From sequence record PP430346: a stretch of 64,000 bases of DNA. One strand, 5' to 3'. The position numbers and the translations under genes are program-made. Position 1 is the first letter of the stretch, and each line of letters starts with the position of its first letter. Positions 16,496 through 21,810 of the stretch are shown here, in pieces. The notes beneath the pieces are model-generated. The model saw only the letters and a list, made by a program, of their open reading frames with translations. It ran no database searches and was not told the DNA's origin. This DNA is from Escherichia phage vB_EcoM-LTH02.

Positions 16496-16527
16496 AAAGG
16501 GTATTGACAATGTGTTTGATACCCTTT
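16496..16527 (+). promoter_or_regulatory. hairpin (AAAGGGTAT/ATACCCTTT) after the vWA gene with an embedded TTGACA
   Basis: 9-bp inverted repeat enclosing TTGACA at 16504-16509. Confidence 0.4.
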
Positions 16528-16594
16528 AATATGTTCTACATAGAAACGAAATGAGAGCTTTTCTAAGATACTGAAAAATATTTTAAAAAAGTTC

Positions 16595-16623
16595 TTGACA
16601 ACCACTAAAAAATAATGTTAAAG
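16595..16623 (+). promoter_or_regulatory. candidate promoter of the tRNA operon (TTGACA-17-TTAAAG)
   Basis: TTGACA 16595-16600, 17-nt spacer, weak -10 TTAAAG; first tRNA begins at 16651; flanked by inverted repeat AACCACT/AGTGGTT. Confidence 0.45.
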
Positions 16624-16650
16624 TGGTTACATAGAGTTTGAAAAGTTTAT

Positions 16651-16727
16651 CTCTGTTTAGCTCAGCTTGGTAGAGCGTTCCGTTTGGGGCGGTAAGGCCG
16701 GAGGTTCAAGTCCTCCAACAGAGACCA
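16651..16727 (+). tRNA. tRNA-Pro (anticodon TGG)
   Basis: Cloverleaf by eye: acceptor CTCTGTT/AACAGAG, D GCTC..GAGC, anticodon loop TTTGGGG, T-arm GGAGG-TTCAAGT-CCTCC, CCA encoded. Confidence 0.75.
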
Positions 16728-16734
16728 AATTAAT

Positions 16735-16812
16735 GTTCCAGTAGACAAAATGGTAAAGTCACCACTCTTTCAAAGTGGATATTTGAGGGTTCAAATCCCT
16801 TCTGGAACGCCA
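16735..16812 (+). tRNA. tRNA-Glu (anticodon TTC)
   Basis: Acceptor GTTCCAG/CTGGAAC, anticodon stem CCACT/AGTGG with loop CTTTCAA, T-loop TTCAAAT, CCA encoded. Confidence 0.75.
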
Positions 16813-16819
16813 GTTTTGA

Positions 16820-16892
16820 CAGAAGACCAATTGCAGCAAACTTAATCTTATTCATCTGACACGAAATCGGACAAAGAAGAGATTTGGTCTGG
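16820..16892 (+). ncRNA. structured element of the AGACC/GGTCT stem family (a)
   Basis: 5' CAGAAGACCAA-TTGCAGCAA ... TTGGTCTGG 3'; terminal 7-bp stem AGACCAA/TTGGTCT; lies between tRNA-Glu and tRNA-Met. Confidence 0.45.
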
Positions 16893-16903
16893 TCATTAAG
16901 AAT

Positions 16904-16980
16904 TGCGGGTATAGAGAAAGGGCGTCTCACATGTCTCATTAGCATGGTATCGGCAGGTTCGACTCCTGCACCCGCCTCCA
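16904..16980 (+). tRNA. tRNA-Met-like (anticodon CAT), irregular
   Basis: Anticodon stem CATGT/GCATG with loop CTCATTA, D-stem GAGA/TCTC, T-arm GCAGG-TTCGACT-CCTGC, 3' ACCCGCC-T-CCA; the acceptor pairs only with a T1/C72 mismatch or an extra nucleotide before the D-stem. Confidence 0.5.
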
Positions 16981-16986
16981 ATTTTG

Positions 16987-17046
16987 CAGAAGACCGTATT
17001 CAGCAACAAACTACTTTTTGCGGATAAAAGAAAAAACACGGTCTGG
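16987..17046 (+). ncRNA. structured element of the AGACC/GGTCT stem family (b)
   Basis: CAGAAGACCG-TATTCAGCAA ... CGGTCTGG; stem uses CG where elements a and c use CAA/TTG (compensatory change). Confidence 0.45.
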
Positions 17047-17057
17047 CAATGTATTAA

Positions 17058-17134
17058 GGTTAGGAAGCACATAAGGTATGTGCGGTCGCCTGTTAAGCGA
17101 ATGGCACAGGGTTCGAATCCCTGACTAACCGCCA
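17058..17134 (+). tRNA. tRNA-Asn (anticodon GTT)
   Basis: Acceptor GGTTAGG/ACTAACC, D GCAC..GTGC, loop CTGTTAA, T-arm CAGGG-TTCGAAT-CCCTG, G-CCA. Confidence 0.75.
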
Positions 17135-17143
17135 AATTTAAAT

Positions 17144-17231
17144 GTGTCGTTATCCCGTAGATGGTAGCGGTGGGGACTGTAAATCCCTTGTCATTGAGAC
17201 TCGGTAGGTTCGACTCCTACACGGCACACCA
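17144..17231 (+). tRNA. tRNA-Tyr (anticodon GTA), class II
   Basis: Acceptor GTGTCGT/ACGGCAC, loop CTGTAAA, long variable arm, T-arm GTAGG-TTCGACT-CCTAC, A-CCA. Confidence 0.7.
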
Positions 17232-17237
17232 AATAAA

Positions 17238-17315
17238 GGTTATGTAGTTTAATCTGGTTAAAATACTCCCCTGTCACGGGAGATGATGAGGGTTCAAATC
17301 CCTTCGTAACCGCCA
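17238..17315 (+). tRNA. tRNA-Asp (anticodon GTC)
   Basis: Acceptor GGTTATG/CGTAACC, anticodon stem CTCCC/GGGAG with loop CTGTCAC, T-loop TTCAAAT, G-CCA. Confidence 0.75.
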
Positions 17316-17402
17316 AATTATAATAAGTATTTCAAGATGATGTTTTGAGAGGGCTATTTAGCCCCTCCCTTAAAGAGTTCTTACGAGTATTCTTTAAAGG
17401 AG

Positions 17403-17479
17403 CAGAAGACCAAATTCAGCAAGTACGTATGATATTTTCAAGCCAATTTAATTTTGAAAAAATTTAAAACTTGGTCTGG
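17403..17479 (+). ncRNA. structured element of the AGACC/GGTCT stem family (c)
   Basis: CAGAAGACCAA-ATTCAGCAAG ... TTGGTCTGG; internal hairpin TTTTCAA...TTGAAAA. Confidence 0.45.
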
Positions 17480-17492
17480 CTCAACAAATTTA

Positions 17493-17624
17493 CAGAAGAC
17501 CGTTTACAGCAAAACTTAAACAATCTATTTCTCCGGTAAAGAAAAGGCGAAGGTTCGATTCCTTCACTCGGCAGATGTCGAGTTGGTGTAATGGTAGCAC
17601 TTAAGATGATAAACAACGGTCTGG
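17493..17624 (+). ncRNA. YrlA-like (Y-RNA-like) candidate: terminal stem plus circularly permuted tRNA-like module
   Basis: Terminal stem AGAAGACCGTT (17495-17504) / AACGGTCT (17615-17622); inside, in this order: hairpin TTTCT-CCGGTAA-AGAAA (17528-17544), canonical T-arm GAAGG-TTCGATT-CCTTC (17549-17565), closed acceptor-like stem ACTCGGC-AGAT-GTCGAGT (17566-17583), D-arm GTGT-AATGGTA-GCAC (17586-17600). Confidence 0.55.
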
Positions 17625-17631
17625 TAATTAT

Positions 17632-17763
17632 CTTTGTAGATAAGTTATTAAGCTTACCTGTGAGTATGCGACCACAAAGGGTGAAAGGGTAAATTCTAGA
17701 TTTAAACCCAACAAGGCACATCGCTACAGACCTTAAGCAAGTCTGGGTAGCTTATCTACAAAG
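17632..17763 (+). ncRNA. structured region closed by a 13-bp long-range inverted repeat
   Basis: CTTTGTAGATAAG (17632-17644) pairs with CTTATCTACAAAG (17751-17763); encloses hairpin CAGACC-TTAAGCAA-GTCTGG (17726-17745). Confidence 0.4.
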
Positions 17764-17773
17764 ATAATTTAAT

Positions 17774-17849
17774 GGAAGTGTAGCAGAATGGTGATGCGGC
17801 AGACTTTTAATCTGACAGGCGATGGGTTCGAATCCCTCCACTTCTACCA
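17774..17849 (+). tRNA. tRNA-Lys (anticodon TTT)
   Basis: Acceptor GGAAGTG/CACTTCT, loop CTTTTAA, T-loop TTCGAAT, A-CCA; T-stem weak (3 bp). Confidence 0.65.
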
Positions 17850-17853
17850 ATAT

Positions 17854-17930
17854 GGTTCAGTCGCAGATAAGGTAATGCAAGGGTCTCATAAACCCTATGA
17901 ATGTGGGTTCGATTCCCATCTGAACCTCCA
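17854..17930 (+). tRNA. tRNA-Met or Ile2 (anticodon CAT)
   Basis: Acceptor GGTTCAG/CTGAACC, anticodon stem AGGGT/ACCCT with loop CTCATAA, T-arm GTGGG-TTCGATT-CCCAT, T-CCA. Confidence 0.75.
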
Positions 17931-17931
17931 A

Positions 17932-18007
17932 GCTGGTATAGTTAAGAAGGTTATAACACTCCCCTGATAAGGGAACATCGGTGGTTCGATTCCACCTACC
18001 AGTACCA
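17932..18007 (+). tRNA. tRNA-Ile (anticodon GAT)
   Basis: Acceptor GCTGGTA/TACCAGT, D GTTA..TAAC, loop CTGATAA, T-arm GGTGG-TTCGATT-CCACC, A-CCA. Confidence 0.75.
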
Positions 18008-18022
18008 ATTTCAATAAAGTTG

Positions 18023-18051
18023 TTGACATTGAGATGTGACCACTTTATAGT
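18023..18051 (+). promoter_or_regulatory. internal promoter in the tRNA region (TTGACA-17-TATAGT)
   Basis: TTGACA 18023-18028, 17-nt spacer, TATAGT 18046-18051; about 200 nt non-tRNA leader follows before tRNA-Arg. Confidence 0.6.
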
Positions 18052-18254
18052 AACCTTAGTTTTCGTTGCGTAGCGTCTATTTTGCAAATTTAAAATAAAT
18101 GCAAACGACAATGTTTTTCTGGCAGTAGCTTGATAGGCTAAACACCAGTGAGGTCTTCCAATCCCTCATCAAAGAATTTGGCGTACTCGCCCACGGTATG
18201 ATTAATAAGGTGGGCATCTTTAAGGGCTTTCTAAGAGAGTCTTTAAAGATTAAT

Positions 18255-18331
18255 GCACCCTTAGTTCAATTGGATAGAGCAACGGTCTTCTAAATCGTTA
18301 GTTACAGGTTCGAATCCTGTAGGGTGTGCCA
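18255..18331 (+). tRNA. tRNA-Arg (anticodon TCT)
   Basis: Acceptor GCACCCT/AGGGTGT, D GTTC..GAGC, loop CTTCTAA, T-arm ACAGG-TTCGAAT-CCTGT, G-CCA. Confidence 0.75.
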
Positions 18332-18473
18332 AATAGTTAGCAGATTGCTTAGACGACCTTATCGGGTCTCCGTGTAAGGAGGTGGTCTGTATCTCATGTT
18401 TTCCAGAACATGTAAATAATCTGAGAAGGGGCTTTACAGTGTTGCGAAAATACGGTAAGCTTCGAATTATAGT

Positions 18474-18556
18474 GTGGGACGATGTTAAGACTCTAAGGCA
18501 TGAGCAACGGCCTCCAAAACCGTTTCAAAGGGGTTCAACTCCTCCGTCCCATGCCA
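18474..18556 (+). tRNA. tRNA-like, possibly Trp (anticodon CCA), irregular
   Basis: Acceptor GTGGGAC/GTCCCAT, T-arm AGGGG-TTCAACT-CCTCC, G-CCA; anticodon arm ACGGC-CTCCAAA-ACCGT; 9 nt instead of 2 between acceptor and D-stem, total 83 nt. Confidence 0.4.
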
Positions 18557-18569
18557 AAGTCTTATTAGG

Positions 18570-18659
18570 GGTAGGTAGCGGCTAATGGTAGCCAAACTGT
18601 CTTGAAAACAGTTGCCACTGTAGAGATACGGTGAGGGTTCGACTCCTTTACTTACCGCC
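18570..18659 (+). tRNA. tRNA-Ser (anticodon TGA), class II
   Basis: Acceptor GGTAGGT/ACTTACC, anticodon stem ACTGT/ACAGT with loop CTTGAAA, long variable arm, T-arm GAGGG-TTCGACT-CCTTT; 3' end reads G-CC-T, so CCA is not fully encoded. Confidence 0.7.
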
Positions 18660-18814
18660 TAATAAGATTTAAAGCCAAGCTTCATTCGGATGTTGCTTTG
18701 GTATCCCTCGTGTATTGTCGTACACGCACAGTAAAGCACCTAGTAGGTGTCACGGAGAAGAGATAATATCAAGCTCTCCAAAGGTTCTAGTCACCGGATT
18801 AAACAAGACTATGC

Positions 18815-18836
18815 AAAGACCAAATTAGGTCTTTTT
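18815..18836 (+). terminator. terminator-like hairpin using the AGACC/GGTCT stem
   Basis: AAAGACC-AAATTA-GGTCTTT followed by TT. Confidence 0.4.
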
Positions 18837-18915
18837 AGAGGGCTTCTAAGGTTATTACAGCTTGTTGTGGAACCTTGTTGCTTAGGTTCTTAGAAGTTCT
18901 CTAAAAAGATTTAAT

Positions 18916-18992
18916 GCACCTATAGCCCAATTGGTAGAGGCAGCAGACTTAGAATCTGCTCAGTGTGAGTTCGAATCTCTCTAGGTGTACCA
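18916..18992 (+). tRNA. tRNA with anticodon TAG (Leu by anticodon; short variable arm)
   Basis: Acceptor GCACCTA/TAGGTGT, anticodon stem GCAGA/TCTGC with loop CTTAGAA, T-loop TTCGAAT, A-CCA; 77 nt. Confidence 0.65.
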
Positions 18993-18999
18993 AATTAAT

Positions 19000-19075
19000 G
19001 CAGGTGTAGCAAAATGGTTATGCGGCTGACTCTTAATCAGTAAGACGATGGGTTCAATTCCCTCCACCTGTACCA
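19000..19075 (+). tRNA. tRNA-Lys (anticodon CTT)
   Basis: Acceptor GCAGGTG/CACCTGT, loop CTCTTAA, T-loop TTCAATT, A-CCA; paralog of tRNA-Lys(TTT). Confidence 0.65.
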
Positions 19076-19081
19076 AACATT

Positions 19082-19157
19082 GGGGATGTAGTTTACATGG
19101 TTAAAACATAAGTTTTGCAAACTTAAGTACAGGGTTCAATTCCCTGCTTCTCCACCA
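19082..19157 (+). tRNA. tRNA-Ala (anticodon TGC)
   Basis: D GTTT..AAAC, anticodon stem TAAGT/ACTTA with loop TTTGCAA, T-arm CAGGG-TTCAATT-CCCTG, 3' CTTCTCC-A-CCA. Confidence 0.7.
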
Positions 19158-19163
19158 ATTAGT

Positions 19164-19238
19164 GCATCCATAGTTTAAACGGGAAAATTACAGTCTTCCA
19201 AACTGAGGTTGAGGGTTCGATTCCCTCTGGATGCTCCA
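19164..19238 (+). tRNA. tRNA-Gly (anticodon TCC)
   Basis: Acceptor GCATCCA/TGGATGC, loop CTTCCAA, T-arm GAGGG-TTCGATT-CCCTC, T-CCA. Confidence 0.75.
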
Positions 19239-19244
19239 AACAAT

Positions 19245-19321
19245 GCTGCTTTCGTATAATTGGCTATTACACATCCCTTGTAAGGATGGAAATGCAGGTT
19301 CGAGTCCTGTGAGCAGCACCA
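19245..19321 (+). tRNA. tRNA-Thr (anticodon TGT)
   Basis: Acceptor GCTGCTT/GAGCAGC, anticodon stem CATCC/GGATG with loop CTTGTAA, T-loop TTCGAGT, A-CCA. Confidence 0.75.
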
Positions 19322-19325
19322 ATTC

Positions 19326-19411
19326 AGAGGTCAAGTGAAAGACCGCTGGTGTCAACTGAAGACCGTAACAAATTCCACGGAGTTGAGTTAGCGGCACAAC
19401 TTCAGACCTCT
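19326..19411 (+). ncRNA. multi-stem structured element between tRNA-Thr and the next tRNA
   Basis: Nested stems AGAGGTC (19326-19332) / GACCTCT (19405-19411); CCGCT (19343-19347) / AGCGG (19390-19394); TCAACT (19352-19357) / AGTTGA (19381-19386); apical loop carries GAAGACCGTAACAAATTCC, related to the 5' arms of elements a-d. Confidence 0.45.
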
Positions 19412-19416
19412 TCCAT

Positions 19417-19491
19417 ACTCGCTTAGTTTATATGGTAAAACACCACCCTTACAAGATGAAGAAAAAGGTTCAAGTCCTTTAGTGAGTACCA
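19417..19491 (+). tRNA. tRNA-like, anticodon probably TAC (Val); weak anticodon stem
   Basis: Acceptor ACTCGCT/AGTGAGT, D GTTT..AAAC, T-arm AAAGG-TTCAAGT-CCTTT, A-CCA; anticodon region CCACC-CTTACAA-GATGA forms only 3 of 5 pairs. Confidence 0.45.
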
Positions 19492-19492
19492 T

Positions 19493-19570
19493 GTTCCAGT
19501 ATCCCAATTGGCAGAGGATGCAAGCTCAAACCTTGTACTAGTGACGGTTCGAATCCGTCTTGGAACACCA
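19493..19570 (+). tRNA. tRNA with anticodon CAA (Leu by anticodon; short variable arm)
   Basis: Acceptor GTTCCAG/TTGGAAC, anticodon stem GCAAG/CTTGT with loop CTCAAAC, T-arm GACGG-TTCGAAT-CCGTC, A-CCA. Confidence 0.65.
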
Positions 19571-19575
19571 ATTTT

Positions 19576-19651
19576 GCAGGATTAGTTCAAATGGATAGAG
19601 CAACAGTCTACGAAGCTGTTAATAGGGGTTCGAATCCCTTATCCTGCGCCA
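19576..19651 (+). tRNA. tRNA-Arg (anticodon ACG)
   Basis: Acceptor GCAGGAT/ATCCTGC, D GTTC..GAGC, loop CTACGAA, T-loop TTCGAAT, G-CCA. Confidence 0.75.
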
Positions 19652-19670
19652 ATTTAAAGAGGCTATTTAG

Positions 19671-20228
19671 ATGAGATATTTGAAGTATGCTTCATGGATT
19701 TTCTTAGCTTTGTTAGAGCCATTTGCAGCAATCTTAGCAGTTATCTTAGCACCTTTCGTAGTTCCATTTTACAGTGAGAAGAAAGGACACTTACCTTTCG
19801 GATTTAGATGGATGGAAACTTACGACAACCCGATTGATGGTGATGAAGGTCACGTCAAACGATGGGCTAAGATTAGAAAGATTGGTAAGCTTGGTATCTA
19901 TATGCAGAGAGTCGGTTGGCTCTGGAGAAACAAAGCTTATAACTTCTCTTATCATGTGTTAGGAAGAGATGTGAAAGATGTTACTAAGTGGAAAGGTAAT
20001 ATTAATGTAAGTTCTAACCCTGAAGATAATCAGACAGGTTATCTCCTAATGTGGAACAGTAATGCTTGGGGATTATTCGCTTTTATCCCATCAATTAAAG
20101 TCTTTGGTAAACAATTCTACTGGAGAATTTATGTTGGATGGAAACTTAAAAGTGTTGTCCCAAAAGAAAGAGCATTCTCAAGGGAAAGAGTTATGTTGGC
20201 ATTCTTTATTCATCCACTAAGAAAGTAA
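19671..20228 (+). CDS. hypothetical Trp-rich membrane-anchored protein embedded in the tRNA array (185 aa)
   Basis: ATG at 19671 with SD in AAGAGGCTATTTAG; N-terminal hydrophobic helix WIFLALLEPFAAILAVILAPFVV. Confidence 0.55.
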   Translation: MRYLKYASWIFLALLEPFAAILAVILAPFVVPFYSEKKGHLPFGFRWMETYDNPIDGDEGHVKRWAKIRKIGKLGIYMQRVGWLWRNKAYNFSYHVLGRDVKDVTKWKGNINVSSNPEDNQTGYLLMWNSNAWGLFAFIPSIKVFGKQFYWRIYVGWKLKSVVPKERAFSRERVMLAFFIHPLRK

Positions 20229-20236
20229 AGATTTAA

Positions 20237-20312
20237 AGGGGATTAGTTTACAAGGTTAAAACCTCGGTCTTTGAAATCGAAGAAGTTGGTTCAATTCCAA
20301 CATCCCCCGCCA
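20237..20312 (+). tRNA. tRNA-Gln (anticodon TTG)
   Basis: Acceptor AGGGGAT/ATCCCCC (A1/C72 mismatch), D GTTT..AAAC, anticodon stem TCGGT/ATCGA with loop CTTTGAA, T-arm GTTGG-TTCAATT-CCAAC, G-CCA. Confidence 0.7.
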
Positions 20313-20314
20313 AT

Positions 20315-20393
20315 GCTCCATTACTCCAATTGGCAGAGAGGCCAGACTTAAAATCTGTGTTATGTATCGGTTCGAATCCGATATGGAGTACCA
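20315..20393 (+). tRNA. tRNA with anticodon TAA (Leu by anticodon; short variable arm)
   Basis: Acceptor GCTCCAT/ATGGAGT, loop CTTAAAA, T-arm ATCGG-TTCGAAT-CCGAT, A-CCA. Confidence 0.6.
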
Positions 20394-20398
20394 AATTT

Positions 20399-20474
20399 AG
20401 CGGTATAGCATAACTGGCAATGCAGCAGTCTCTGAAGCTGTCTTATTAAGGTTCAAATCCTTATGCCGCTGCCA
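20399..20474 (+). tRNA. tRNA-Gln (anticodon CTG)
   Basis: Acceptor AGCGGTA/TGCCGCT, D GCAT..ATGC, loop CTCTGAA, T-arm TAAGG-TTCAAAT-CCTTA, G-CCA. Confidence 0.7.
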
Positions 20475-20505
20475 CTTCTAAGGGTTCTTACGAGAGTCCT
20501 TAAAT

Positions 20506-20581
20506 GTGGCCTTATCATAAAAGGTAATGACCCATGCTGTGAACATGGTCTATACGGGTTCAAATCCCGTAGGTCACCCCA
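20506..20581 (+). tRNA. tRNA-His (anticodon GTG)
   Basis: Acceptor GTGGCCT/AGGTCAC, D TCAT..ATGA, anticodon stem CCATG/CATGG with loop CTGTGAA, T-arm ACGGG-TTCAAAT-CCCGT, discriminator C then CCA. Confidence 0.75.
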
Positions 20582-20586
20582 ATTTA

Positions 20587-20663
20587 TAGTCCAAGTAGCT
20601 TATATGGTTAAAGCGCGTGTCTGAAAAACATGAGAAGAGGGTTCAAATCCCACTGGACTACCA
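20587..20663 (+). tRNA. tRNA-Phe-like (anticodon GAA), irregular acceptor/D junction
   Basis: D GCTT..AAGC, anticodon stem CGTGT/ACATG with loop CTGAAAA, T-loop TTCAAAT; acceptor TAGTCCA/TGGACTA pairs perfectly but leaves a nonstandard junction and 3' end. Confidence 0.55.
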
Positions 20664-20679
20664 ATTTCAAAGGTGCTTA

Positions 20680-21414
20680 ATGAAAGAGATGACAGAACAA
20701 GGTAAGGAGATTTTTAATCTCTTAAAAACCGGTAGAGGGTTTTCTAATCCCCTTATTACTGGTGCAGCAGTTCTCGGTGGAACCGTAGCTGCCTCTACAT
20801 CACTTGTAAGCTCTATTAGCTCTGTAACAGACCCTACAATAAAAGATAAGCTTATTGCTGCTGGACTTACAACAGTTCTGCTTAATAGCTTTACAACGAG
20901 TCTGACAAGCACTACATCAACCACTAAGACATTGACAGATTACGGTCAAAAATCAATTGATGAGTTTTCATCACGTATGCAGGTAGCAAAAGGATATTCC
21001 AATGTTATGGGTGCAGCAGGAGAGCAAGTTGGTTGTACACCATTTAGTGGTATTATGGGTGTTGCTACAGAGTATGGTCAAAAAGCTATTGACACAATTA
21101 ACAGCACACTAGACAGTGTTAACGGTGTGTTAAGTGACTTACAGGATGCTATTGATGAAGGTCTTGATACCATTTCTGATTTAGCTAACCAAGCTGTTAG
21201 CAAGATTAATGAAGGTATCTCAAAGATTACAGCTTATGCAGATGAAGTTGTGCAGATGATTGAAGAAGAAGCTGCCCTTATTGCAGAGTACCTTAAAACG
21301 AATATCAATGGGTTCTTAGCAGGTATCTTACCAGACTGGTTTGATGATGCTTGTAAAACTGGTGTAATTGATACTATTGCAACACCAGAAATGAAGAACG
21401 CATTACAGAAATAA
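20680..21414 (+). CDS. hypothetical Ser/Thr-rich protein (244 aa)
   Basis: ORF track 20617..21414 starts at GTG inside tRNA-Phe; moved to ATG at 20680; stop lies 1 nt before tRNA-Ser(GCT). Confidence 0.55.
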   Translation: MKEMTEQGKEIFNLLKTGRGFSNPLITGAAVLGGTVAASTSLVSSISSVTDPTIKDKLIAAGLTTVLLNSFTTSLTSTTSTTKTLTDYGQKSIDEFSSRMQVAKGYSNVMGAAGEQVGCTPFSGIMGVATEYGQKAIDTINSTLDSVNGVLSDLQDAIDEGLDTISDLANQAVSKINEGISKITAYADEVVQMIEEEAALIAEYLKTNINGFLAGILPDWFDDACKTGVIDTIATPEMKNALQK

Positions 21415-21415
21415 T

Positions 21416-21508
21416 GGAAGATTAACCCTAAAAGGTAAGGGAGCAGTTTGCTAAACTGCCAGTAGCTGAGAAATCGGTGTACCAGTTCAAGTCTGGTATC
21501 TTCCTCCA
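21416..21508 (+). tRNA. tRNA-Ser (anticodon GCT), class II
   Basis: Acceptor GGAAGAT/ATCTTCC, anticodon stem GCAGT/ACTGC with loop TTGCTAA, long variable arm, T-arm ACCAG-TTCAAGT-CTGGT, T-CCA. Confidence 0.7.
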
Positions 21509-21512
21509 ATTT

Positions 21513-21588
21513 GAATCCGTGACAGAAATGGCTATGTGCCTGTCTGCAAAACAGGTTTATAAGGGTTCGAGTCCCTTCGGATTCTCCA
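21513..21588 (+). tRNA. tRNA-Cys (anticodon GCA)
   Basis: Acceptor GAATCCG/CGGATTC, anticodon stem CCTGT/ACAGG with loop CTGCAAA, T-arm AAGGG-TTCGAGT-CCCTT, T-CCA. Confidence 0.75.
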
Positions 21589-21625
21589 AGTTATTTTACT
21601 CTCTCTCAATTAAAATAATAATAAT

Positions 21626-21686
21626 GCCCTGCTATAAGTATTCTTCCTTTCGCTACCGAAGAGTATTTTTAGACAGGGCTTTTTTA
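21626..21686 (+). terminator. intrinsic terminator after the tRNA array
   Basis: GCCCTG ... CAGGGC stem followed by TTTTTT; a second hairpin GACGGT-CTCTGT-ACCGTC plus TTTTTT lies at about 21752-21775. Confidence 0.55.
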
Positions 21687-21810
21687 CAGAGTTATACTTT
21701 ATAAGAAGACTTATACAGTATGTCTCTGACGTACATTGTGGTTTCTCCTTGACGGTCTCTGTACCGTCTTTTTTAAGGGGAAACATGGTTAATTATTTGG
21801 AGAAAACATA

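Follow-up and report, generated by a model that had tools for sequence, protein, structure and literature searches.

Type I leucine tRNAs and a non-canonical candidate tryptophan tRNA in the tRNA gene array of a Felixounavirus

The window analysed here, a stretch of 64,000 nt from Escherichia phage vB_EcoM-LTH02 (PP430346), is Felixounavirus (Felix O1-like) genome sequence with 96–98% identity to Felixounavirus genomes. It carries an array of tRNA genes (Table 1), called with ARAGORN and the Rfam tRNA model (gathering score 29 bits). The array tRNAs are all on the + strand, all encode CCA except tRNASer(UGA), and their isotypes are complete apart from a canonical Trp. An earlier note, made from the sequence, had described leucine tRNAs with short variable arms and several irregular cloverleafs in this region, and both observations are confirmed. 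The long arms that it had seen in Ser and Tyr are present as stem-loops in both tRNASer and in tRNATyr.

Table 1. Features of the tRNA gene array and what supports them
Feature	Coordinates	Strand	Evidence
tRNA gene array	16651..21588	+	26 ARAGORN tRNAs and one that ARAGORN misses; Rfam; annotated homologue C600M2
Irregular tRNA(CAU), Met	16904..16980	+	ARAGORN
tRNATyr(GUA), class II, long arm (comparator)	17144..17231	+	88 nt
Non-canonical tRNATrp (best reading), unannotated	18474..18556	+	Cloverleaf fold, covariation, CM search
tRNASer(UGA), class II, long arm (comparator)	18570..18659	+	90 nt; ARAGORN, Rfam
Type I tRNALeu(UAG)	18916..18992	+	ARAGORN Leu(tag), 77 nt with CCA; Rfam 58.9 bits
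tRNAVal(UAC), weak anticodon stem	19417..19491	+	Rfam 55.8 bits
Type I tRNALeu(CAA)	19493..19570	+	ARAGORN Leu(caa), 78 nt; Rfam 43.6 bits
Type I tRNALeu(UAA)	20315..20393	+	ARAGORN Leu(taa), 79 nt; Rfam 47.5 bits
tRNAPhe(GAA)	20588..20663	+	Rfam 45 bits
tRNASer(GCU), class II, long arm (comparator)	21416..21508	+	93 nt; ARAGORN, Rfam

ARAGORN called the three genes with Leu anticodons (TAG, CAA and TAA) exactly where the earlier note had placed them. Their variable regions (positions 44–48, standard numbering) are stemless and comprise 5 nt in tRNALeu(UAG), 6 nt in tRNALeu(CAA) and 7 nt in tRNALeu(UAA), the range of 5–7 nt first read by eye. In tRNALeu(UAG), the D stem has 3 bp, the D loop reads CAAUUGGUAGA, U48 is the last nucleotide of the variable loop, and A73 is followed by an encoded CCA; the other two share its type of D arm, U48 and A73. 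Since the genes have only 74–76 nt without CCA, a long arm is impossible, which rules out canonical long-arm structures that had been mis-folded. None of the three has the stem-loop arm of at least 10 nt typical of class II tRNALeu. All have the features of type I tRNALeu, namely a Leu anticodon, a stemless variable region of about 4–8 nt and a Leu-type core (A14, A15:U48, G18G19, the extended D loop AAUUGGYAGA, A73 and a normal T loop). When Leu tRNAs from five phage lineages were aligned with E. coli tRNALeu (whose sequence was checked against 5426 genomes), A73, A14, G18, the U48-equivalent column and the T loop were invariant. The class II tRNALeu of E. coli (leuQPV and others) shares the D arm, A14, A15:U48, G18G19, A73 and the T loop with the phage genes but has 87 nt and a stem-loop variable arm where the phage tRNAs have a loop of 5–7 nt. 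The phage tRNAs resemble E. coli tRNALeu shorn of its long arm, with the D arm, T loop and A73 kept.

The short arm is not peculiar to this phage, nor to phages in general: many unrelated phages carry it, and so do bacteria. The Leu(TAG) gene matched, without gaps through the variable region, 297 phage records, including phages of Mycobacterium, Streptomyces, Enterococcus, Lactobacillus and Pseudomonas, crAss-like phages, and Cronobacter and Klebsiella phages of about 149 kb. Confirmed carriers of short Leu tRNAs further include T5-like, KVP40-like, Bixzunavirus and Samistivirus loci, and the tRNALeu of coliphages from two families are exclusively type I. In Mordin and Arno162, a T5-like Leu(TAG) allele sits inside the Ounavirinae array. 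No match to Leu(TAG) was found by blastn in 5426 E. coli genomes. A pattern scan detected short-arm tRNALeu in at least 120 IMG/VR contigs, and a genome scan in at least 120 bacterial loci, mostly of Actinobacteria; type I tRNALeu was also found within tRNA arrays of bacteria and, in Actinobacteria, as lone genes on the chromosome. The statement that bacterial tRNALeu is class II, from which the earlier note started, therefore holds as a rule but has exceptions, among them these bacterial loci and the type I tRNALeu(CAA) of S. coelicolor (PMC6614811). A literature search found no mention of short-arm tRNALeu in phages, and none of the papers searched combined the terms "type I tRNALeu" and "phage".

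The variable regions of tRNALeu fall into two groups, with 4–8 nt in type I and at least 11 nt in class II, and nothing at 9–10 nt. Conservation was counted over 170 viral and 146 bacterial type I members, using features that lie outside the search pattern: A73 is found in 160 and 142 of them, respectively, a 5-nt variable loop in 144 and 139, and U48 in 169 and 145. At loci with short Leu tRNAs, every tRNASer has at least 81 nt and every tRNATyr at least 79 nt. Besides SerRS, bacterial TyrRS uses the variable arm. For SerRS the arm is a major identity element (review, PMC9976931), and because the Ser and Tyr arms serve their synthetases in this way, only Leu would be free to lose it.

The doubt on leucine identity implied by the earlier note is not supported. 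All the determinants that E. coli LeuRS is reported to use (A73, A14, A15:U48, G18G19 and the D loop) are present, and the long arm, which tRNALeu has everywhere but in animal mitochondria according to this 2023 identity review, is reported to be dispensable (PMC9976931). E. coli LeuRS recognizes its tRNAs by A73 and the D/T elbow, ignoring both arm and anticodon, so charging of the three tRNAs with leucine by the host LeuRS is the most likely mechanism. Once charged, they would read UUA, UUG and CUA, and probably further CUN codons. Leu codons of the UUA, UUG and CUA type are used 2–3 times as much in the AT-rich phage as in its host; over 55 ORFs of the window, the Leu codon shares are 27.7% for TTA, 11.6% for CTA and 13.7% for CTG.

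Published evidence on charging by E. coli LeuRS points both ways. The S. coelicolor type I tRNALeu(CAA) was proven biochemically to be leucylated by its own LeuRS (Fan et al. 2019, NAR, PMC6614811), but its transcript was not leucylated by purified E. coli LeuRS, which the authors regard as specific to type II and whose leucine-specific domain reportedly prefers a large variable loop in its tRNAs (PMC6614811). Together with the pseudogene labels that some pipelines assign to short-arm Leu genes (the tRNAscan-based GenBank annotation of AYO145A flags Leu(TAG) as "tRNA-Pseudo"), these results would suit tRNAs that the host LeuRS refuses and that are either charged by another synthetase or left uncharged as decoys, regulators or sponges. 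We consider such a switch of identity quite improbable: the LeuRS determinants are all kept and are conserved family-wide outside the search pattern, and none for a different synthetase is apparent (G3:U70, for example, is missing, and A73 takes the place of the serine element G73). Moreover, the three anticodons serve about half of the Leu codons of the phage, so mischarging would be ruinous. The only tRNALeu genes of phage OSYSP (MF402939.1) are two of type I, each 77 nt long, and a tRNALeu(CGA) derived from this record reportedly makes E. coli read TCG as leucine (PMC13596443). The sequence is not printed in that paper, and we infer the type I body of this tRNA from the gene set of the record. 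Leucylation by the host enzyme thus remains the preferred reading.

Among known systems, the S. coelicolor tRNALeu(CAA) resembles the phage genes in its Leu anticodon, its short variable loop and the class II tRNAs in the same compartment (PMC6614811), and the bacterial type I members recovered here have the D arm GCCCAAUUGGCAGAGGC and A73 in common with them. It differs in being a chromosomal actinomycete gene with a LeuRS adapted to it and A73 unused, whereas the phage has an enterobacterial host whose LeuRS reportedly rejects the Streptomyces tRNA, and all three of its Leu tRNAs are type I. The T5-like OSYSP, from which the "viral tRNALeu(YGA)" for swapping genetic codes in E. coli was derived, has Leu genes with the same D loop, U48 and A73 and infects the same host; OSYSP belongs to another phage family, however, its genes have modest identity to the Felix-type ones, and the short arm goes unmentioned in its papers examined. 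The animal mitochondrial tRNALeu(UUR) also belongs to type I and is identified through A73 and A14 (PMC9976931), but has a dedicated mitochondrial LeuRS, a degenerate floppy body and an unrelated sequence.

For the element with anticodon CCA, the long acceptor-to-D junction that had been noticed is upheld: the cloverleaf contains 9–10 unpaired nt at this point. The 5′ strand of the acceptor spans 18474–18480 (to 18481 with an 8-bp stem) and is followed by the invariant connector GAUGUUAAG(A) at 18481–18490. The D stem has 3 bp (18491–18493 with 18502–18504) and an 8-nt loop. The anticodon (18514–18516) is part of the loop CUCCAAA, at whose base C.A (31:39) is unpaired, and G73 and CCA are kept. 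ARAGORN made no call here, the Rfam tRNA model gave no match at E≤5, the best Rfam result was tRNA-Sec only (23 bits, E=0.38), and none of the sequence records examined annotates the element. Across relatives, 99.5% of the cells at paired positions are paired, and 8 of the 20 pairs show compensatory changes, a count reached in none of 500 shuffles; alignments slid as a control had no compensatory pairs, and the pattern points to purifying selection on the helices. The single-sequence fold is modestly better than shuffles (z = −1.5). A covariance model (CM) search scored 111.7 bits at this site and at most 41 bits for any ordinary tRNA. A pseudoknot or an extended D stem involving the connector was judged by eye and set aside, and covariation backs the CNC/GNG D stem. 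A G8-C65 pair is possible and invariant, and both an 8/4 fold and a 7/5 fold with A49.C65 are compatible with the covariation. The element does not fit a standard 7/5 cloverleaf with a 2-nt connector, nor, with a variable region of 4–5 nt and G73 combined with the CCA anticodon, the long-arm, serine-type identity of 8/4 tRNAs.

The element is best read as the tRNATrp of the phage. The CCA anticodon and G73, the major TrpRS determinants (PMC9976931), are invariant in 11 distinct sequences of this family. The gene lies 13 nt upstream of a tRNASer gene, and its leader and trailer sequences resemble those of neighbouring tRNAs. No other Trp tRNA is present in any of the five Ounavirinae arrays examined, which makes it the only Trp decoder of the array, and in phage D1-2 this very slot is taken by another tRNATrp; on these grounds we infer charging with tryptophan and use on the ribosome. 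Erwinia phage phiEa104 encodes a canonical tRNATrp with an identical anticodon-arm 15-mer, CGGCCUCCAAAACCG, and the gene probably arose from an ordinary Ounavirinae tRNATrp whose acceptor-to-D connector gained 7 nt by insertion. Canonical tRNATrp (E. coli trpT, phiEa104) shares the loop CUCCAAA, G73 and, in most alleles, A1-U72, but has a connector of 2 nt in place of 9–10 nt and lacks the 3-bp D stem with 8-nt loop; 31:39 is unpaired in the phiEa104 tRNATrp too. The allele is missing from about 10% of related phages. In an IMG/VR scan for the exact connector motif, the Trp-like element appeared in Ounavirinae-type contigs only; the other matches inspected contained no Trp-like sequence, and some lay in coding-like sequence or a tandem repeat. 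When 1.39 Mb of viral loci rich in tRNAs was searched with a covariance model, no other tRNA bearing the insertion was detected.

In structure, the Trp gene comes closest to the 8/4 allo-tRNA-like genes, irregular tRNAs (Mukai et al. 2017) with an extra loop at the same acceptor/D junction, which, according to PMC7609411, could not be charged in vitro by E. coli synthetases. An 8/4 drawing of the Trp gene is possible, but the allo-tRNA-like genes combine a long variable arm with serine-type elements, frequently with G-1 as well, and come from soil metatranscriptomes, whereas the Trp gene has a short arm and Trp determinants and comes from a cultured coliphage. Their failure to be charged could favour a tRNA-like RNA with a non-decoding job, either as a decoy for a host tRNA-targeting nuclease or as a ligand for a protein, of phage or host, that reads GAUGUUAAG. 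The invariance of the connector while the stems vary suggests sequence-specific recognition beyond the needs of a tRNA body, and a second tRNA-like RNA, unable to be a tRNA, lies 900 nt upstream. We nevertheless hold a non-decoding role to be unlikely, given that the CCA anticodon, the loop core, G73 and the CCA end are strictly kept, that the gene supplies the sole missing isotype, that the slot is occupied in D1-2 by a different allele that is clearly a tRNATrp, and that the gene is homologous to the canonical phiEa104 tRNATrp.

The remaining irregular tRNAs decode Val, Met and Phe. The poor pairing noted in the Val anticodon stem corresponds to two C.A mismatches (27.43 and 30.40) in 5 bp; the one at 30.40 is conserved through Ounavirinae as U.U or C.A, and C27.A43 is an addition of this phage. 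Offset acceptor/D junctions had been described in two genes, and both tRNA(CAU) and tRNAPhe indeed have 3-nt connectors, but tRNAPhe starts at 20588 and not at 20587. In tRNA(CAU), 1x72 is unpaired (U.C here, A.C in Arno162), and U37 and U73 are present; it has no Rfam match even at E≤5, and the Met tRNA(CAU) of Felix O1 has a Cove score of 28.9. Its acceptor pairs 2–6 presumably match E. coli tRNAfMet, and it may be initiator-like. tRNAPhe has A7.C66 and a weak T stem, and its orthologues in Mooglevirus show compensatory acceptor changes.

Low or absent tRNA-model scores, the "pseudo" calls in the Felix O1 and AYO145A annotations and the absence of the Trp allele from some relatives might indicate that the Trp-like, Val, Met, Phe and even Leu genes are decaying pseudogenes carried along in the array. 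This is very improbable. Every helix of the Trp gene is kept by compensatory changes, compensation is also seen in the Phe acceptor and in T stems, and CCA and the discriminator are retained. The odd features (the Trp connector, Val 30.40 and Met 1x72) are conserved across genera at 76–92% identity. Because relatives share the oddities of the array and compensatory changes maintain them, they do not reflect chance, and the conservation across relatives argues against pseudogenes for Val, Met and Phe as well. Judged from sequence, the irregular cloverleafs thus appear to be conserved working genes.

Why these forms arose is a separate matter, compatible with the reading above. Loss of the arm, with opened anticodon stems, could represent escape from host toxins that read class II tRNAs or anticodon stem-loops. 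The toxins AbiEii (abortive infection) and MenT3 are reported to prefer long-arm class II tRNAs (bioRxiv 10.64898/2026.01.19.700257), Septu cleaves the variable loop of tRNATyr (abstract of PMC13096335), phage tRNAs are reported to evolve away from RNases of host defence (PMC13596443), and three unrelated phage lineages have an open 31:39 pair in tRNATrp. This origin seems doubtful, as no defence system is known to attack tRNALeu via its arm and type I accounts for only 6 of 44 tRNALeu in a neutral (unselected) viral sample, a rough figure. The ordinary single genes on actinobacterial chromosomes also imply that the type I form need not be a phage invention. A broader version, to which we give similarly little credence, is a rebuilt, private tRNA set, still charged by the synthetases of the host yet invisible to its tRNA-targeting defences; the supposed changes are the arm taken off every Leu, Trp 31:39 opened and an extra loop added, the Val stem loosened and the initiator-like Met remodelled.

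Overall, we consider it likely that the array contains three genuine type I tRNALeu charged by the host LeuRS, irregular genes that work, and the phage tRNATrp; expression, charging and decoding are predicted from the structures, conservation, covariation, family distribution and codon usage observed. The Leu set adds new members to the known type I tRNALeu, and the Trp gene is the newer item. Both are probably conserved, working genes that annotation tools miss or label as pseudogenes: tRNAscan-based pipelines call short-arm Leu genes pseudogenes, and Felix O1-type phages are wrongly listed without a Trp tRNA because all the annotation tools run miss this tRNATrp. Coliphages with type I tRNALeu only, set against the view that EcLeuRS charges only type II, offer a direct test of how far E. 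coli LeuRS needs the arm, and the "firewalled" E. coli strains with swapped codes depend on a viral tRNALeu that is apparently type I. That only Leu loses its arm while anticodon stems are loosened suggests testable links to tRNA-targeting defence. If the set were indeed a private one, short-arm tRNALeu would spread among unrelated phages and mobile tRNA arrays through resistance, and the tRNATrp of 83 nt would become the first elongator tRNA with an extra loop (possibly 8/4) to work in E. coli.

The segment at 16500-21700 is 96–98% identical to about 240 Felix O1-like genomes (Felixounavirus, Ounavirinae; hosts E. coli, Salmonella and Shigella). ARAGORN called 26 tRNA genes at 16651-21588, all on the + strand and all with an encoded CCA except Ser(tga); 24 of them reached the gathering score of the Rfam tRNA model, and a homologous GenBank record is annotated with the identical tRNA set. 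The array also contains two ORFs, annotated in relatives as a putative membrane protein and as a holin or hypothetical protein. The spacer after tRNAIle carries a promoter-like TTGACA...TATAGT as well as Rfam hits below threshold for permuted tmRNA (29.6 bits, E=0.003) and for tmRNA (15.9 bits, E=0.002), which are probably due to chance.

Features of the tRNA array and its spacers, by position
Feature	Position	Strand	Description
Intergenic repeat units	16812-16900, 16979-17052, 17395-17482, 17485-17630		bracketed by CAGAAGACC-N6-CAGCAA and GGTCTGG
Met gene	16904-16980	+	3-nt connector, U37, U73
Permuted or "capped" tRNA-like RNA	17493-17624		in the fourth repeat unit
Large hairpin	17626-17769		22-nt arms, 95% complementary, 100 nt apart; between the repeat units and tRNALys
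Spacer after tRNAIle	17949-18254		
CCA-anticodon element	18474-18556	+	83 nt
Spacer	18660-18915		256 nt
Inverted repeat (within this spacer)	18824-18915		27 nt, 85% complementary, arms 38 nt apart; directly upstream of tRNALeu(tag)
tRNALeu(tag)	18916-18992	+	74 nt without CCA; variable region 5 nt, stemless
tRNAVal	19417-19491	+	
tRNALeu(caa)	19493-19570	+	75 nt without CCA; variable region 6 nt, stemless
ORF	19671-20228		185 aa
tRNALeu(taa)	20315-20393	+	76 nt without CCA; variable region 7 nt, stemless
ORF	20680-21414		244 aa

The CCA-anticodon element, which has an extra unpaired connector between the acceptor and D stems, received no ARAGORN call, its best Rfam match was tRNA-Sec at 23 bits, and no related GenBank record inspected annotates it as a tRNA. 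Its single-sequence fold is a cloverleaf modestly better than shuffles (z = -1.5). Of 257 related records, 230 carry the element with at least 86% identity; in Pectobacterium phage Arno162 its identity is 77%. Across eleven distinct sequences, 99.5% of the cells are paired and compensatory changes occur in 8 of the 20 pairs; none of 500 shuffles did as well, and slid controls lacked compensation. The connector GAUGUUAAG, the anticodon CCA, the loop core YUCCAAM, G73 and the CCA end are invariant, while 31:39 is C.A or C.C. A drawing with an 8/4 arrangement (G8-C65) and one with 7/5 and A49.C65 are equally consistent with the data.

This element is best read as the putative tRNATrp of the phage, because Trp is the sole isotype missing in five out of five Ounavirinae arrays examined, the element lies 13 nt upstream of tRNASer with flanks like those of its neighbours, the ordinary 76-nt tRNATrp of Erwinia phage phiEa104 has an identical 15-nt anticodon-arm sequence, and a different tRNATrp fills the identical slot in Salmonella phage D1-2. 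The latter gene (MN481367.1; L413:1541-1611 in our fetched locus) is unusually short, at 71 nt with CCA; it is labelled tRNA-Pseudo in GenBank and is followed by a 135-aa ORF. The tRNATrp reading is also supported by a covariance model of the extra-loop form, which gave family members 111.7 and 88.6 bits and no other tRNA more than 41 bits across 1.39 Mb of viral tRNA loci. Canonical tRNATrp, with a 7-nt gap in the alignment, led the non-members. An exact-motif scan of IMG/VR points the same way: among the matches inspected, the element occurred only in Ounavirinae-type contigs. The 3' side of its D stem, its anticodon arm and its T arm (18502-18543) share 71% identity with tRNAArg(tct) next to it (18277-18318; repeat family D13). 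The nearest precedent is the irregular 8/4 tRNAs of Mukai et al. 2017, as summarised in PMC7609411, which carry an extra loop at the same junction and could not be charged by E. coli enzymes, a reason for caution here. With its extra loop, the predicted tRNATrp represents a new tRNA variant.

The other irregular genes singled out in the earlier note are indeed irregular. The poorly paired anticodon stem of tRNAVal reflects a 30.40 mismatch kept in all relatives compared, as U.U or C.A, with an additional C27.A43 mismatch in this phage. The offset acceptor/D junction of the Met gene corresponds to its 3-nt connector; 1x72 is unpaired in all relatives compared, the gene lacks the three G-C pairs of the initiator anticodon stem, and its acceptor pairs 2-6 are those of E. 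coli tRNAfMet. The acceptor of tRNAPhe shows compensatory changes among relatives. The possibility that such genes are pseudogenes finds some backing in tRNAscan-based records, which label several of them, and Leu(TAG), in this way; the conservation of the irregular features in relatives speaks against these labels.

Upstream, the permuted tRNA-like RNA has its T arm first, followed by the acceptor 3' strand; a 4-nt loop then leads to the acceptor 5' strand and the D arm. Its 7-bp acceptor helix is kept in 13 distinct homologues, with three fully compensated versions, and the Mooglevirus version retains G-CCA after the 3' strand. It had no Rfam match at E<=5; the architecture recalls that of the bacterial Y-RNA-like YrlA. 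Conservation of the neighbouring large hairpin in Mooglevirus is limited to its 3' part.

For the three genes with Leu anticodons, our positions agree exactly with those read by eye in the earlier note, and its description of them as short-armed also stands, as prediction software did not return long arms. The two Ser genes (90 and 93 nt) and the Tyr gene (88 nt) of this array do carry long arms, as the note had reported, and these form stem-loops. In all three Leu tRNAs a 3-bp D stem closes an 11-nt loop, CAAUUGGYAGA; the last variable position is U, the T loop is standard and the discriminator is A73. The reference E. coli tRNALeu(CAG), found 100% identical and annotated tRNA-Leu in 5426 of 5426 complete E. 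coli genomes, has the D arm GCG-GAAUUGGUAGA-CGC, A15:U48 and A73, and its long arm, missing from the aligned phage genes, is essentially the sole difference between them. The determinants of E. coli LeuRS (EcLeuRS) are A73, the A15:U48 pair, G18G19 and A20a, the anticodon and long arm both being irrelevant; the enzyme still charges variants from which the long arm and the anticodon arm have both been removed (PMC9976931). Given this determinant set, the predicted leucine identity of the three phage tRNAs is well supported.

The host LeuRS would then charge them. Against this counts the failure of EcLeuRS to charge a Streptomyces type I (short variable loop) tRNALeu transcript (Fan et al. 2019, PMC6614811); in favour count the retained determinants and an indirect in vivo result, in which a "bacteriophage-derived (GenBank MF402939.1) tRNALeu(CGA)" causes TCG codons to be decoded as leucine in a recoded E. 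coli, according to the available text of PMC13596443. A whole-record scan of MF402939.1, the T5-like phage OSYSP, found just two genes for tRNALeu, each of type I and 77 nt long. We infer that the engineered tRNA has a type I OSYSP body, its sequence not being printed in that text. Among 55 ORFs of the window, TTA, CTA and CTG account for 27.7%, 11.6% and 13.7% of Leu codons. In E. coli these shares are ~13%, ~4% and ~50%, a difference that fits a decoding role for the Leu tRNAs.

Leu alone would be free to drop the arm, given the arm's part in tRNASer identity and its use by bacterial TyrRS; the bacterial LeuRS instead contacts the elbow and A73. In cytosolic tRNASer the long arm is described as the major identity element (PMC9976931). 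Arm loss may have been favoured by compaction, by simpler discrimination among class II (long-arm) tRNAs or by escape from class II-preferring toxins, such as the reported AbiEii and MenT3 (bioRxiv 10.64898/2026.01.19.700257) and Septu, which is reported to target the variable loop of tRNATyr (PMC13096335); these are leads, not findings.

Leu(tag) had no blastn match in complete E. coli genomes. It matched 297 phage records, nearly all gap-free over the variable region and annotated tRNA-Leu, from phages of, among others, Mycobacterium (91 records), Streptomyces (54), Enterococcus, Lactobacillus, Pseudomonas, Acinetobacter, Rhodococcus, Gordonia, Cronobacter and Klebsiella, and from a crAss-like phage. 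ARAGORN on fetched T5-like, KVP40-like (Vibrio), Bixzunavirus and Streptomyces phage loci confirmed short Leu genes, of 74-77 nt, beside Ser/Tyr genes of 84-90 nt. In Citrobacter phage Mordin (L368:3973-4050) and Pectobacterium phage Arno162 (L367:3557-3634), a T5-like Leu(tag) allele replaces the Felix-type one, both short-armed, which suggests that tRNA-gene cassettes are exchanged between phage families.

A pattern combining D loop, Leu/Phe anticodon loop and T loop with class I spacing matched at least 120 IMG/VR contigs. Among the matched loci listed, 170 of 212 Leu genes were 77 nt or shorter, while all Ser were at least 81 nt and all Tyr at least 79 nt. The short genes share features outside the pattern: A73 (160/170), a 5-nt variable loop (144/170) and U48 (169/170). 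No Leu gene of the listed loci had a variable region of 9–10 nt, so the short and long classes are discrete. Of the 44 Leu genes in a viral sample picked without regard to Leu, 6 belonged to type I, a common yet minority form. ARAGORN also called "tRNA-Ile(tat)" genes of 87-91 nt in dense arrays (L254:2817, L307:7191 and several IMG/VR loci), which probably represent long-arm tRNAs of the allo-tRNA(UAU) type described in PMC7609411.

According to Fan et al. 2019, bacterial tRNALeu is almost all type II, phages being unmentioned, and in S. coelicolor a single LeuRS charges both the one type I species, tRNALeu(CAA), and the four of type II (PMC6614811). Our literature search found no other biochemical study of bacterial type I tRNALeu, and none of the searchable papers combined "type I tRNALeu" with "phage". 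In the Felix O1 genome paper the Leu genes are listed with no remark on their structure. The short-arm Leu genes of this phage add new members to a kind already known, if little noticed, and their function is probably ordinary. The same pattern matched at least 120 bacterial loci. Of those listed, about 90 were lone chromosomal tRNALeu(UAA/CAA/UAG) genes of 74-76 nt in Actinobacteria (Nocardia, Rhodococcus, Mycobacterium, Corynebacterium, Arthrobacter, Bifidobacterium and others; L244-L363), the remainder belonging to dense arrays of tRNA genes in cyanobacteria, Acidobacteriota, Planctomycetota and other groups. Type I tRNALeu is not confined to phages, and its actinobacterial occurrence reaches far past the single Streptomyces case in the literature.
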